Source: an uncultured Acidobacteriota bacterium | GTDB lineage: Bacteria > Acidobacteriota > Thermoanaerobaculia > Multivoradales > UBA5704 | DNA: 64,000 nucleotides | Direction: 5' to 3' | Assembly: GCA_963700145.1 (NCBI GenBank) | Contig: OY969474.1 | Span: 1,344,001-1,408,000 of the forward strand | Shown here: positions 19,053 through 23,391 of the stretch, piece after piece | Position numbering within the stretch: position 1 is the first letter of the stretch | Layout of the letters: every line of letters starts with the position of its first letter | Notes under the pieces: model-generated | What the model was told of the DNA's origin: nothing | Database searches by the model: none | The model's input: the letters and a program-made list of their open reading frames with translations, nothing else | Made by a program: the position numbers and the translations under genes

Positions 19053-19688
19053 CTAGGCAGCGAGGTGCCGGTCGAGCATGTCGGCGAACACCGCAACCAT
19101 CGCCTGGTGCTCGCCTCGCATCGACAGCGCGGCGGCCGTGGCGTAGAGGCTCCCCTCCGGCCTGGGCTTGAGTCTCACGAACGGCGGGAGACCGTAGCGC
19201 AACGCGCACCAGTTCGCCCACAGCCGGGCGGTGCGCCCGTTGCCGTTGGCGAACGGGTGGATGCGGACCCATTCACCGTGGGCATAGGCACAGAGGGTGA
19301 GCACGGCGCGAAGTTGCATCGCATCGGCCGGACGGCGGTTCACCGGGATCACGGGGTCGAGCGCGGCGACTGCCTTCTCCATGGCAGCCTCGAAACTCGC
19401 GAGGAGTTGCGGTACTCGGCGCGACTCCGAACCGCGCTGGCGGCCGACCCTCACCTCGTAGCCGAACAGCTCCGGAAACCTGGGATCGCGGTCGCGCACC
19501 TCGCCCGCGTAGTAGCGAACAGGCAGTCGCACGCCGTCGTAGATCCGGCGGTGCCACTCCTGCGCCATCGCCACGGCCGGCGGCGGACGGCGGGCGGCTT
19601 GCTGCGCGATCTCTCGAAGGACGTGAGTGAGGTTCTGAACGATGACGGGCGCGTCGCGCGGGTCATCCTCGTTCCACGGAATCGCCAA
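19053..19688 (-). CDS. Fic/Doc family protein (putative toxin)
   Basis: RIHPFANGNGRTAR Fic motif. Confidence 0.9.
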   Translation of the reverse strand: MAIPWNEDDPRDAPVIVQNLTHVLREIAQQAARRPPPAVAMAQEWHRRIYDGVRLPVRYYAGEVRDRDPRFPELFGYEVRVGRQRGSESRRVPQLLASFEAAMEKAVAALDPVIPVNRRPADAMQLRAVLTLCAYAHGEWVRIHPFANGNGRTARLWANWCALRYGLPPFVRLKPRPEGSLYATAAALSMRGEHQAMVAVFADMLDRHLAA

Positions 19689-19995
19689 ACAGGGCTCCGA
19701 TGCCGTAGTCGTCCGGCGACTCCACGAGGCGGGCCTTGAGGGGGTCTTCGACCTCTACCTCGCTCTTGGCGAACTCCCGGATGTCGCGGTCGAGGTCCGC
19801 CGGTCCATAGGACTTCAGGCCCTCGAGGGCGCGAGCGAGCCGGCCTTCGACACCGGCGCCGACCGCCGCGAGCTCGCGCTCGATGGCCGCTTCGGCCAGC
19901 TCGTCGACCGAGACTCCGAGCGCCTCCGCCAGCCGCTCGAGGTTGCGAAGCGTCTCCTGATTGTGGAAATGAAGCGTCAGCGCCGCATCGCTCAT
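19663..19995 (-). CDS. Putative RHH-type antitoxin of the Fic protein
   Basis: 110 aa; beta-strand (LTLHF) followed by two helices (LERLAEALGVSVDELAEAAI); overlaps the fic start. Confidence 0.6.
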   Translation of the reverse strand: MSDAALTLHFHNQETLRNLERLAEALGVSVDELAEAAIERELAAVGAGVEGRLARALEGLKSYGPADLDRDIREFAKSEVEVEDPLKARLVESPDDYGIGALFGDSVERG

Positions 19996-20384: not shown

Positions 20385-20460
20385 TGGTGCCCAGGGCCGG
20401 AATCGAACCAGCGACACCGTGATTTTCAGTCACGTGCTCTACCAACTGAGCTACCTGGGC
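20385..20460 (-). tRNA. tRNA-Phe (GAA)
   Basis: GCCCAGGTAGCTCAGTTGGTAGAGCACGTGACTGAAAATCACGGTGTCGCTGGTTCGATTCCGGCCCTGGGCACCA; 76 nt, cloverleaf, encoded CCA. Confidence 0.97.
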
Positions 20461-20605
20461 ACGGTGGGCAGTCTTGGGGGCCGTGGCGGCCCCGCGCGGA
20501 CGGGGGAGTTTGGCACCCGGGGGTGCGGCTAGTCAAGGAAACGGCCGGCGCGGCGGCGGTGTTCCCGGGTGGACAGCGGGTGCCGGAGGGGTTCATACTC
20601 CGCAG

Positions 20606-21040
20606 ATGCCCCAGCTCGACAGCAAGGCCCTACGACTGTTGCTCCGCGAGGCGGTGGAGGCCTTGCTGCGCGACGGCTGGAGCAAGCGCGCGCTGGGGCG
20701 ACGGCTCGGCGTCGGCAACGGCAACCTCGGCAAGCTGCTCAGCGGCGAGAGCCGGCTGACGGTCGATCACTTGATGGCCTTCGCCGAGGTGCTGGACGTG
20801 CCGGTGTCGCAGCTCCTGTCGCTCGCCTTCCCGGAGCAGGAAGCCGCCGCGGGGCGGAGCTTGAGCGACTGGATCGCCCGCCGCGGTCCAGCGGAGCGCG
20901 AGGCGGCCCTCGCCGGCCTGCCGCGGACGCGCGCCGAGCTCGAGGAGGTGGTGCGCCGGGCGTTTTGCGCCGAGCTGGACCGGCGCGGGCTGACGGCGCC
21001 GCCCGCCGGCCCGAACGGCGGCGCTCCGACAGCGCCGTAA
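20606..21040 (+). CDS. XRE-family helix-turn-helix protein
   Basis: GWSKRALGRRLGVGNGNLGKLLSGESRLTVDHLMAFAEVLDVPVSQLL. Confidence 0.8.
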   Translation: MPQLDSKALRLLLREAVEALLRDGWSKRALGRRLGVGNGNLGKLLSGESRLTVDHLMAFAEVLDVPVSQLLSLAFPEQEAAAGRSLSDWIARRGPAEREAALAGLPRTRAELEEVVRRAFCAELDRRGLTAPPAGPNGGAPTAP

Positions 21041-21058
21041 GCGGCGATTCGGGCCCCG

Positions 21059-21423
21059 CGGTCCCCGTTTTACGCGGTTCGGCGGCCCGATGGGGCCCTC
21101 CGGTCCTCTACCTACGCAATTCGCCGGCTCATTGAGCGGTCGCGGTCCTCAACCTACGCGGTTTGCCGGGCCGTTGGCCTGGGTTTTCTGCCGAAATGGC
21201 AGCTCCGGTCCTCGTTTTACGCGGTTGGTCGGGCAAACCGGCTGGGTCCTGTCCTCGGTTTACGCAGTTCGTCCGCCGACCCAGCCCATTCGGTCCTCAA
21301 CCTACGCAATCGGCCGGCCGCCGAGGGCTCCGCGGTCCCCAACTTACGCAGTCGGCCGGCCGACCCGGCCCAACGGCCCGTCGCGAGCGCCCGTCCGGTC
21401 CTCAACCTACGCAGTCGGCCGGC
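21059..21423. repeat. Array of eight 21-nt repeats (consensus CGGTCCTCAACCTACGCAGTY) with variable 21/42-nt spacers
   Basis: Repeat starts 21059, 21101, 21143, 21206, 21249, 21291, 21333, 21396; GTCC and TACGC invariant. Confidence 0.9.
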
Positions 21424-21459
21424 CCCTAACTAGGCTCGCGTGCTACACTTTTCCGCATT

Positions 21460-22341
21460 ATGCCCGCACGCGCGATCGGCTCCGGCACGATCTCCTTCGG
21501 CCTCGTGGCCATCCCGGTGAAGCTCTACTCCACCGGCGAGCCGCAGAGCGCCGTCTCCTTCAACATGGTGCACCGCTCCTGCGGCACGCGCCTCAAGTAC
21601 CGCTACTGGTGCCCCACCGACGAGGTCTTCGTCGAGCGCGACGAGATGGCCAAAGGGTACGAGTTCGCCAAGGGGCAGTATGTCCTCTTCAACGAGGAGG
21701 AGCTCAAGGCGCTCGAGCCGGAGGCCACCAACGCGATCGAGATCGCCGAGTTCGTGCCGCTGGCCGCGGTCGATCCGATCTACTTCGAGAAGTCCTATTA
21801 CCTGGGGCCCGACAAGGGTGGGCCGAAGCCCTACCGCCTGCTGGCGCTGGCGATGAAGGAGTCGGGCTACGCGGCGCTCGCCACCTACCTCGCGCGCGGC
21901 CGCAGCTACCTCGTGCTGCTGCGCCCGTTCGAGAACGGCCTCGTCATGCAGCAGCTCCGCTACGCCGACGAGCTGCGCAGCTTCGACGAGGTGCCGGTGG
22001 GCGACGCCGACGTCAAGCCGAACGAGCTCGAGCTGGCGCTGCGGCTGGTCGACCAGATCGCCGCCGAGCGCTTCGACCCGAAGCCCTACAAGGACGTGCT
22101 GCGCGACCGGATCGTGGCACTGATCGAGAAGAAGGTCGCCGGCGAGCAGATCGTGGCGCCCCCCGAGGAGGCGCCGAAGGCGCAGGTCATCGACCTCATG
22201 GCGGCGCTCAAGGCGAGCCTCGGCGAGGCGGGCGTCAAGAAGCCGGCCCGCCGGGCGCCGCGCGAAGAGGCGGCCCCGGCGAAGTCGGCGAAGATCGCCG
22301 CGGCTGCGAAGGGCAAGGCCCGCGCCGGCGGCAAGCGCTAG
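21460..22341 (+). CDS. ku: NHEJ DNA-end-binding protein Ku
   Basis: RAIGSGTISFGLVAIPVKLY, KGYEF, VDPIYFEKSYYL, VIDLMAALKASL, basic C-terminal tail. Confidence 0.95.
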   Translation: MPARAIGSGTISFGLVAIPVKLYSTGEPQSAVSFNMVHRSCGTRLKYRYWCPTDEVFVERDEMAKGYEFAKGQYVLFNEEELKALEPEATNAIEIAEFVPLAAVDPIYFEKSYYLGPDKGGPKPYRLLALAMKESGYAALATYLARGRSYLVLLRPFENGLVMQQLRYADELRSFDEVPVGDADVKPNELELALRLVDQIAAERFDPKPYKDVLRDRIVALIEKKVAGEQIVAPPEEAPKAQVIDLMAALKASLGEAGVKKPARRAPREEAAPAKSAKIAAAAKGKARAGGKR

Positions 22342-22350
22342 CGGCTGGAG

Positions 22351-22513
22351 TGTCATCCTGAGCGCAGCGAACCCGCAGTCCAGATCAATTGCCGGCTCCG
22401 GCCGGCAACCATACGGGTAGCGGAGCCCATCGTGGGGCTCCGCAACGATCTGGGCGGGGGTGAAGGCACCGAGCGTCCCGGCCCCCAGATCCTTCGCTAC
22501 GCTCAGGATGACA
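22351..22513. repeat. REP-like family A, composite element
   Basis: tgtcatcctgagcgcagcgaa ... ttcgctacgctcaggatgaca arms enclosing nested inner palindromes. Confidence 0.8.
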
Positions 22514-22545
22514 GGCTAGGGCTCGAGACGCCGGACCTCGACGCC

Positions 22546-23391
22546 ATGCTCTCCTCGCCCCTCCCCGGCTACACCACCCACGACGTGGCGCGCCTGCTCG
22601 GCGTCGCCGAGGAGCGGGTGCGCTCGTTCGTCCGCGCCGGGTTCCTGGCGCCGCGGCGCGGGGCGCGTGGCGCTTACCTCTTCTCCTTCCAGGACCTGGT
22701 CGTCCTGCGGGCGGCGCAGGGCCTCCTCGCCTCGGGCGTCGCGCCGCGGCGCGTGCGCCGGGCGCTGGCGCGCCTTCACGAGCAGCTGCCGCGCGGCCGC
22801 TCGCTCGCCACCGTGCGCATCGCCGCCGAGGGCGGGTCGATTGTGGTGCGCGCCGGCGGCGAGGCCTGGCTCGCCGAGTCGGGCCAGCAGGTGCTGGACT
22901 TCGAGGTGGCGCCGCTCGCCGCGGCCGCCGCGCCCTTCACCGAGCGCGCCTACGCCGAGGCGCGCGACCGCGAGGACCTCGAGGCCGACGACTGGTACGA
23001 GCTGGCCTGCGAGCTGGAGGCGACGGCGCCGGCCGCGGCCCAGGAGGCCTACGGCAAGGCGCTGGCGCTCGATCCCGAGCACCCGGACGCGCACTTGAAC
23101 CTCGGCCGGCTCCTGCACGAGGACGGCGACGCCGCCCGCGCCGCCGCGCACTACCGCCGCGCCCTCGTCGCCCGCCCCGGCGACGTCACCGCCAGCTTCA
23201 ACTTGGGCGTCGCCCTCCAGGACCTCGACCGCCCGCGCGAGGCGATCGCCGCCTACCTCGAAGCCCTCGCCGCCGACCCCGCCTGCGCCGACGCGCACTA
23301 CAACTTGGCGGGGCTCTACGAAGAGCTGGGCGAAGGGGCGGAGACGATCCGCCACCTGGCGGCCTACAAGAAGCTGCTCGAGCGGGAGTAG
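22546..23391 (+). CDS. MerR-type HTH + TPR protein
   Basis: YTTHDVARLLGV...FSFQDLVVLR N-terminus; 3-4 TPRs (AHLNLGRLL, ASFNLGVAL, AHYNLAGLY). Confidence 0.85.
   Translation: MLSSPLPGYTTHDVARLLGVAEERVRSFVRAGFLAPRRGARGAYLFSFQDLVVLRAAQGLLASGVAPRRVRRALARLHEQLPRGRSLATVRIAAEGGSIVVRAGGEAWLAESGQQVLDFEVAPLAAAAAPFTERAYAEARDREDLEADDWYELACELEATAPAAAQEAYGKALALDPEHPDAHLNLGRLLHEDGDAARAAAHYRRALVARPGDVTASFNLGVALQDLDRPREAIAAYLEALAADPACADAHYNLAGLYEELGEGAETIRHLAAYKKLLERE

Follow-up and report, generated by a model that had tools for sequence, protein, structure and literature searches.

The 64-kb stretch of DNA presented here (the window, by which we mean the whole of that stretch) comes from an uncultured member of the Acidobacteriota whose genome of 5.46 Mb, 71.5% G+C, was available as one contig. 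At positions 21059..21423 of its plus strand, between a gene for a small helix-turn-helix (HTH) protein of the XRE family and the gene ku, lies an array of short phased repeats, and the question raised by this locus is what such an array might be. A reading made without comparison to other sequences (the sequence-only reading) had presented it as a Cas-less repeat-spacer array and had offered two explanations, namely a phased series of protein-binding sites, for which the adjacent XRE protein was named as a candidate ligand, or a structured RNA that is processed into small units. Our comparisons within this genome and among its relatives point to the first of the two: the array is probably a multi-site docking platform, with its sites on one face of the DNA, for the XRE protein encoded directly upstream.

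Anatomy of the array and of its copies

A search of the window with the pattern GGTCCYCNNYYTACGC, allowing at most one mismatch, gave eight matches, all on the plus strand and within 21060-21412. Their starts (21060, 21102, 21144, 21207, 21250, 21292, 21334 and 21397) reproduce the spacings of 42, 42, 63, 43, 42, 42 and 63 nt that had been reported earlier for eight units of a 21-nt family; shuffled sequences gave a mean of 0.23 matches, and eight were reached in 0 of 100 shuffles. We refer to these strong 21-nt units as u-units. Their consensus is GGTCCYC-N4-TACGC, in which ~10.5 bp separate the centres of the two blocks, GTCC and TACGC, and the four bases in between are variable. The eight plus-strand pattern matches are, from the first to the last, GGTCCCCGTTTTACGC (21060..21075), GGTCCTCTACCTACGC (21102..21117), GGTCCTCAACCTACGC (21144..21159), GGTCCTCGTTTTACGC (21207..21222), TGTCCTCGGTTTACGC (21250..21265), GGTCCTCAACCTACGC for a second time (21292..21307), GGTCCCCAACTTACGC (21334..21349) and GGTCCTCAACCTACGC for a third (21397..21412). 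A reading of these units as sigma-54 or extracytoplasmic function (ECF) promoters was discarded by eye, as the spacing does not fit.

The stretches between the u-units had been taken for unique spacers. Pattern matches, repeat finding and the alignment of copies show them to be degenerate members of the same 21-nt family (s-units, below), so that the region is a tandem array of ~17 units in which the strong motif is kept in every second or third. The s-units of the window are similar to units of other 21-nt arrays in this genome, and u-units follow each other at 21-nt spacing in the variant copies C and E described below and in the copy of a related genome, G001. The s-units have one orientation in the left half of the array and the opposite orientation in the right half, an arrangement that accounts for the nested inverted pairs and for the long-range pairings of the consensus fold, with the fifth u-unit at the centre of the symmetry. 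For example, a left-half s-unit of the '+' type at 21167..21184 complements the right-half s-units at 21270-21290, by the consensus fold, and at 21363-21380, by repeat search; the latter, of the '-' type (21363..21380), is its inverted partner over 18 nt with 89% complementarity. This pair and the second one noticed earlier, GGCTGGGTC at 21240 with GACCCAGCC at 21278, are present in the sequence, as are the small hairpins GCTCATTGAGC and CTGCCGAAATGGCAG. The s-unit palindrome CTGCCGAAATGGCAG (21189..21203, no strand assigned) has a core, TGCCGAAATGGC, within alignment columns 141-153, which are invariant in 9/9 copies, and possibly a second factor binds there. At 21166-21182, within the array, lies a terminator-like hairpin, which was dropped as a conserved terminator because its T-run is missing in the other copies.

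A period that is a multiple of three, together with the small number of stop codons in the plus-strand frames, might suggest a protein of 7- or 14-residue repeats, either real or decayed. We consider a coding repeat very improbable. The three plus-strand frames have GC3 values of 0.56-0.73, lower than the 0.85-0.99 of the surrounding genes, the unit spacings are not multiples of three in 7 of 10 copies, and each of the three minus-strand frames has between 1 and 14 stops. The sequence-only reading had itself named intact heptad open reading frames (ORFs) in the homologous regions as what would speak against it, and by GC3 and spacing those regions do not have the character of such ORFs.

Exact matches to the unit number 26 in the genome, every one of them inside arrays and in five clusters, and the 124 isolated near-matches include no exact one. 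A looser pattern combined with a profile search identified six loci, four of which are full copies and two of which are variants. They are located at 32.6 kb (copy A, minus strand), 409.6 kb (B, plus), 904.4 kb (C, plus), 1,365 kb (W, the copy in the window, plus), 1,929 kb (D, minus) and 2,431 kb (E, plus, C1:2431253-2432116), the last being apparently split by ~600 nt with a fragment of a DUF4143 gene (Pfam). Copies A, B, W and D each contain eight units in one spacing pattern, and their inter-unit stretches can be aligned as well. The six copies are spaced evenly at ~0.4-0.55 Mb and all lie within the first 2.4 Mb, an arrangement on one half of a circle for which the chance is ~0.19 at n=6; the cumulative GC skew of the genome has no clear origin or terminus.

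Orthologues of the W, B and D copies are present in two sister species, and across 10 copies of the whole ~370-nt array the stretches between the units are kept in the same order. This last observation bears directly on the possibility of an adaptive array of the kind known as clustered regularly interspaced short palindromic repeats (CRISPR), here without cas genes. The locus does look like repeats that alternate with non-repeat stretches of 21 or 42 nt, and the genome fits a version lacking cas genes to the extent that it has no full cas1, the nearest thing being a partial Cas1 match of 23 residues 276 kb away; the neighbours of the array (tRNA, Fic, XRE, ku and MerR-TPR) include no cas gene. 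The supposed spacers gave no phage match and one 39-nt plasmid match at chance level. Since 10 copies keep them in one order and they are, moreover, degenerate repeats, the CRISPR-like reading is refuted, and we regard it as barely conceivable.

An alignment of nine copies has a mean column identity of 82% and a constant module order, and the GTCC and TACGC columns are invariant in it. The copies group by locus rather than by genome, from which it follows that the paralogous copies predate these species and have stayed put. Orthologous arrays are 73-94% identical, as compared with 89-93% at the 4-fold sites of the flanking genes ku and purA, which suggests that selection has acted on the core blocks GTCC and TACGC and not on the array as a whole. 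Common descent can explain why motifs agree within a group of orthologues; it does not explain blocks that are invariant while the remainder changes as fast as synonymous sites. Two loci in relatives depart from the general picture. The ku-linked array of genome G001 (L036, G001:C408) is led by an XRE gene of the C group and by C-type units at 21-nt spacing, with W-type modules after them, a hybrid that suggests recombination between modules. In the sister genome G003 the array is absent from the locus of copy B, at purA/tRNA-Lys (L098, G003:C393:7700-8790), and a different stretch of ~950 nt to ~1.1 kb is found there instead; that stretch resembles an antisense gene, and the array boundary is unreadable there.

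Could the array be a selfish or neutral minisatellite, that is, a foldback family or one similar to repetitive extragenic palindromic (REP) sequences and bacterial interspersed mosaic elements (BIME), which has spread by slippage or recombination and has come to lie near XRE genes through co-duplication? Several of the observations above are what such a family would produce: multiple copies at six loci, to which the related arrays at 257.8k, 2593.3k and 2660.8k, long and inverted, can be added, evolution of the whole array at or above the rate of synonymous sites, unit numbers that differ between species, the apparent splitting of copy E, the lack of an array in one sister species at the locus of copy B and the inverted symmetry of the two halves. 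Nevertheless, we think it improbable. The genome has no transposase of the IS200/RAYT type (PF01797, 0 matches, with matches in 6/14 control genomes), the array ends without terminal repeats or target duplications, and the invariance of the core blocks against a drifting remainder is unexpected, as are copies that occupy orthologous sites in three species and cluster by locus. Moreover, the link to one protein family, described next, extends across 10 genera although the array sequences share only GTCC. The narrower REP/BIME (REPIN) identification was rejected because the strong units are non-palindromic, all direct and found at six loci only; the idea of a RAYT had come from the GTAG on the minus strand.

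A family of XRE proteins linked to phased arrays

The gene directly upstream of the array in the window (20606..21040, plus strand; Pfam HTH_3, E 1.4e-7) encodes an XRE-family protein of 144 aa, the proposed ligand of the array. Its start at the ATG at 20606 is taken from an alignment of 23 homologues; the mechanical ORF begins at 20474. The HTH gene that precedes copy C is a paralogue of the XRE gene at W and A (51% identity, E 8e-33). Searched with a profile of the XRE family, the genome proves to have six strong members (E 2.6e-35 or better), and all six have a same-strand 21-nt-phased array with a GTCC-type core directly 3' to the gene. The array begins within ~20 nt of the XRE stop codon or overlaps it at W, A and C, and begins ~90 nt from it at the copy at 3762k. 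As the catalogue of arrays for the 5.46 Mb has only 96 entries (87 of period 20-22 found with Tandem Repeats Finder (TRF), plus arrays of longer period and the W-type copies), this adjacency in 6/6 cases is very unlikely to have arisen by chance.

Homologues of the XRE family occur in 64/92 genomes, and 10/11 genera, of the bacterial family to which this genome belongs, and the XRE family is confined to that group. When the phylum was sampled evenly, 2/301 genomes had it, both of them from that bacterial family. No homologue was found on 72,556 plasmids, and none in a phage collection. At 30 loci from other genomes we scored periodicity by autocorrelation in the 400 nt after the stop codon and in the 400 nt before the gene, a positive being a top lag of 20, 21, 40, 41 or 42 with z >= 3.4. 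Downstream, 19/29 scorable loci were positive; upstream, 1/28 was. TRF arrays at three more loci, where the finding of the stop had failed or the contig ended, bring the loci with a downstream array to 22/30, and at three further loci (L069, L077 and L085) the array is located between two tandem XRE genes. The consensus unit starts with GTCC on the coding strand in 11/19 arrays. Apart from the XRE gene itself, no gene common to the 30 loci was found.

Within the genus, each group of XRE orthologues has its own array motif. The W group (G0_W, G0_A and G4_W, with 90-94% protein identity) has the unit GGTCCYC-N4-TACGC, the C group (79-96%) has GTCC-N6-TTACGAAC and the 1751k group (81%) has GNCCTCGACGTACTGRGTTC, while the G003 relative of W, at 59-64% protein identity to W, has TGTCCTGGAYCTACTCGCT. 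The two single copies, at 5221k and 3762k, have units of the TTACTGGG type and GGTCCGAA, respectively. Arrays that have no XRE gene beside them bear the motif of one or another paralogue, namely the W motif at B and D, the 1751k motif at 485.3k and the 3762k motif at 5,399k. The proposal that the adjacent XRE protein is the ligand of a phased protein-binding array is strengthened by these motif differences and by the linkage in 6/6 paralogues and 22/30 loci.

Proteins of the family have ~130-145 residues. They begin with an N-terminal helix, after which comes an HTH_3 domain of five helices whose turn and recognition helix (G-I-G-H/N-G-N-L) are conserved. The part behind this domain has a G-C-P-E motif and a short helix and ends, past a linker, in an amphipathic C-terminal helix. 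The AlphaFold2 model of the protein in the window (pLDDT 80.9) is nearest, with weak E values (>= 0.02), to the DNA-binding domains of XRE, HigA, ClgR and lambda cI proteins, several of which were solved on operator DNA; a sequence search of solved structures gave generic HTH matches only, likewise weak (E >= 0.05). The protein is therefore, by its sequence and model, probably of a DNA-binding type. The predicted homodimer is symmetric, is formed through residues 50-89 and has a score of 0.59 (best control 0.01); three runs share at least 71% of the contacts, and the pLDDT of the partner is at least 69. The mark applied to this prediction was passed by 20/30 solved homo-pairs and 1/23 single chains. 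Since XRE dimers have already been solved, the prediction may reflect likeness to them and is no proof of a dimer.

The genes around the W copy were identified as follows. Upstream, a tRNA-Phe gene (20385..20460, minus strand; ARAGORN and Rfam tRNA) is divergent from the XRE gene, and just beyond it are a Fic/DOC-family gene and a small ORF on the minus strand (window 19053-19995). A promoter-like site on the plus strand, TGGACA and CATACT separated by 18 nt (20570..20599), is a consensus match only (1 found vs 0.0 expected); it ends 7 nt 5' of the XRE ATG and would yield a leaderless or near-leaderless mRNA. Downstream of the array are ku (21460..22341, plus strand; Pfam Ku, E 8.4e-50) and, from the Pfam scan, a gene for a protein with a MerR-type HTH and TPR repeats (22432..23391, plus strand). 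The -10-like hexamer TACACT (21444..21449, plus strand) stands 10 nt before the ku ATG and ~30 nt past the last u-unit; it was read by eye, having been missed by the consensus scan, and the junction of array and ku that includes it is, again by eye, conserved in the four ku-linked copies. XRE gene, array, ku and MerR-TPR gene have been duplicated together, as a segment found at 20474-23391 of the window and at C1:30720-33578 of the genome, in which the two ku copies are 96% identical in nucleotide sequence and the arrays 92%. Elsewhere the neighbours differ: ku and the MerR-TPR gene accompany only W, A and the ku-linked copies within the genus, and are missing at B and D, where the gene 5' of the array is tRNA-Lys and a DUF1801 gene, respectively, both in the same orientation as the array. 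The description "upstream of ku" thus applies to this paralogue; other copies precede unrelated genes. In contigs from soil metatranscriptomes (small shares of 4 public RNA runs), ku and part of the XRE gene were covered from relatives and the array was not.

The proposed docking platform and its alternatives

How might an XRE protein use such an array? In the explanation that we favor, one HTH dimer would bind each 16-bp unit, with its two reading heads in successive major grooves at GTCC and TACGC. As the recurrence of the units at 42 and 63 bp amounts to four and six helical turns, all of the bound dimers would face one side of the DNA and could touch each other or wrap it, and cooperative assembly might then turn them into one large block of nucleoprotein at the 3' end of the gene that encodes them. 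Gene and array would together form a self-contained module that has been duplicated and has diverged into several protein/motif pairs per genome, and the gene-less arrays would be served in trans by the XRE protein with the matching motif.

As to what the block might do, our preferred guess is a transcription barrier or switch, which would keep transcription from running on out of the XRE gene and determine how active a promoter ~30 bp past the last unit is, in this case that of ku. This guess is favored because a terminator-like hairpin between the stop codon and the array is absent in 29/30 loci and because TACACT lies at the distance stated. A second guess would be titration or autoregulation, as with incA of P1.

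A number of observations weigh against this explanation. Symmetric two-fold HTH dimers normally read inverted half-sites, and TACGC does not repeat GTCC in inverted form; comparison with the operators of XRE and Cro/cI proteins thus finds blocks ~10.5 bp apart and a predicted symmetric dimer, but blocks that lack the corresponding symmetry. By the criteria used, 8/30 loci have no downstream array, and in the array of the 3762k paralogue only one block (GGTCCGA) is conserved. The related genomes are non-independent samples for the linkage of gene and array and, since gene and array are inherited together, conservation of the motif within a group is expected from descent alone. Several s-units, for example the one with TGCCGAAATGGC, are as invariant as the u-units and are not explained by a model in which the XRE protein is the sole ligand. 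Finally, the very lack of a terminator-like hairpin, on which the preferred guess draws, means that the array may be co-transcribed, so that a role at the level of RNA is possible, and the existence of ~70 further arrays of 20/21 nt with unrelated units and other partners means that the period may reflect something more general.

If it were an RNA element, the array would be transcribed as the 3' part of the upstream mRNA or as an RNA of its own and might act as a sponge, as a stabilizer or as a source of small RNAs. Its orientation is always that of the 5' gene, whether this is an XRE gene, the tRNA-Lys gene at B or the DUF1801 gene at D, and the minus strand shows GAGGAC in every unit, both of which would suit such a role in addition to the absence of terminators just mentioned. 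We nevertheless hold it to be quite unlikely. The fold is no more stable than those of shuffled sequences on either strand (z -0.71 and -1.58), the covariation terms of the consensus fold amount to only -1.18 and -0.51 kcal/mol, no Rfam family matches within the array, and either strand could form the predicted pairings equally well, as would be the case for an inverted repeat in DNA. The structured, processed RNA of the sequence-only reading finds no support in these values. A sponge of the CsrB/RsmZ type, an idea taken from the GGA in every minus-strand unit, was rejected as the genome has no CsrA/RsmA gene (PF02599, 0 matches).

It is likewise doubtful, and to much the same degree, that the ligand is another protein (MerR-TPR, Ku or a general array-binding factor of the lineage) and the XRE gene merely a regulated neighbor. 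The invariant s-unit palindrome suggests a second factor, the MerR-TPR gene has been co-duplicated with the copy in the window, and 11 of the other arrays with the same period are found directly before genes for small coiled-coil proteins with basic tails. On the other side, the restriction of ku and MerR-TPR to W, A and the ku-linked copies, and the existence of B and D without either, leave the XRE gene alone as common to the 30 loci.

The other arrays are of interest in their own right. Requiring 5 or more copies and a score of 90 or more of a TRF locus (the raw period histogram, with 554 rows at period 21, is inflated by two-copy matches), we find 107 in the genome, 72 of period 21, 14 of period 20 and 3 of period 42. 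Their units are many, unrelated to each other and mostly palindromic, such as GGAAGCTTCC, GATACG..CGTATC, CGGGAAAGTTATCCCG, GAGATCTATCTC and others; examples on C1 are at 137619-137943, 1581836-1582375 and 4921657-4921999. GTCC is phased in only 4/87 arrays of period 20-22, so that GTCC had to be given up as a universal core of these arrays and the XRE-linked arrays are to be seen as one subclass. The 11 arrays mentioned above differ in their units and lie directly 5' of paralogous genes for coiled-coil proteins of ~130 aa that have an Arg/Lys-rich tail and no Pfam family (C1: 215261, 333313, 1411262, 1445412, 2171916, 2702559, 3204154, 3395432, 3889654, 4009411 and 4271726); on the far side of two of the 11 there is a distant, divergently transcribed XRE-like gene, and a Pterin_4a-like gene is found with three. 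In the long inverted arrays, at C1:257800-258330, 2593300-2593780 and 2660780-2661260, CGAATGGACTGGGTCGGCGGC is repeated in ~10-14 units, after which its reverse complement takes up ~6-8 more; these arrays are large imperfect palindromes of 21-nt units, which are related to the s-units of the window.

A bolder possibility, which we think rather unlikely, would join these arrays to those linked to XRE genes in a chromatin-like addressing system of the whole lineage. Each genome would have dozens of phase-locked arrays of 20/21 bp, each with its own small cognate protein that polymerizes on one face of the helix; the XRE family would read the arrays with a GTCC core and the basic coiled-coil proteins would read others. 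The XRE/array pairs would then be orthogonal lock-and-key sets diversified by duplication and the gene-less arrays their remote targets, which jointly would mark or insulate chromosomal sites and might, at the locus in the window, gate ku.

Relation to known repeat systems

A full-text search of the literature, as judged from titles and the openings of abstracts, found no description of phased 21-bp arrays of this kind. Should the docking platform exist as proposed, its diverged protein/motif pairs would provide a natural series for studying the evolution of HTH specificity and of one-faced cooperative assembly, and the position of one array directly before ku suggests that bacterial end-joining may be under a control that is new. 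More broadly, in a little-studied soil lineage with ~90 phased arrays per genome, the XRE proteins would offer a way into a class of repeats that are otherwise without ligands.

Among systems that are known, REP/BIME elements are similar in being short GC-rich intergenic repeats that cluster at the 3' ends of genes, some with the potential to form hairpins. The units described here differ from them in being direct, in a fixed architecture of ~370 nt with ~6 copies, and in having no RAYT gene in the genome. The incA locus of P1 is an array of iterons behind repA whose proposed role is in titration or handcuffing and not in promoter control, and it shares with our array, as do other titrating iterons, phased direct repeats behind the gene of the proposed ligand. 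The protein families are unrelated, and the array here is found without a Rep-type initiator, origin features or a plasmid; no Rep domain occurs among its neighbors, the array region is GC-rich throughout, and the XRE protein has no plasmid homologue.

The centromeres of plasmid partition systems come closer, as phased, motif-bearing repeats beside the gene of a candidate binder are what the sequences here present as well. In the parC/ParR systems of R1 and pSK41, tandem repeats of 11 or 20 bp are bound cooperatively by a small dimer to form a one-sided superstructure. Tandem repeats, a small dimeric protein and assembly on one side are also what we propose for the array, whereas parC precedes its operon and contains the promoter, ParR is a ribbon-helix-helix protein and the actin-like ParM is required. 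The candidate binder here is of the HTH_3/XRE type and not a ParB, ribbon-helix-helix or TubR protein; Pfam scans around the six copies found no ParA, ParM or TubZ NTPase gene, and the 30 loci share no third gene.

Of the known systems, sopC of plasmid F is the one most like the array. It lies directly behind sopB, and SopB reads DNA through an HTH. In sopC a direct repeat of 43 bp occurs 12 times, and every repeat contains a 16-bp motif to which SopB binds (PMC3177203). Both arrays are thus series of direct repeats of about four helical turns (43 bp in F, 42/63 bp here) with a 16-bp motif in each. The differences are that the motif of sopC is an inverted repeat and the u-unit motif is not, that the protein here is of the XRE type with 130-145 aa and not a ParB, that no gene for a ParA/SopA-type ATPase stands next to any copy, and that the module here is chromosomal, with several diverged pairs per genome and gene-less arrays besides. 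If the XRE protein does coat these arrays, they would be a chromosomal counterpart, in several paralogous versions, of the centromere and iteron arrays of plasmids, one that would operate without a motor or an initiator.

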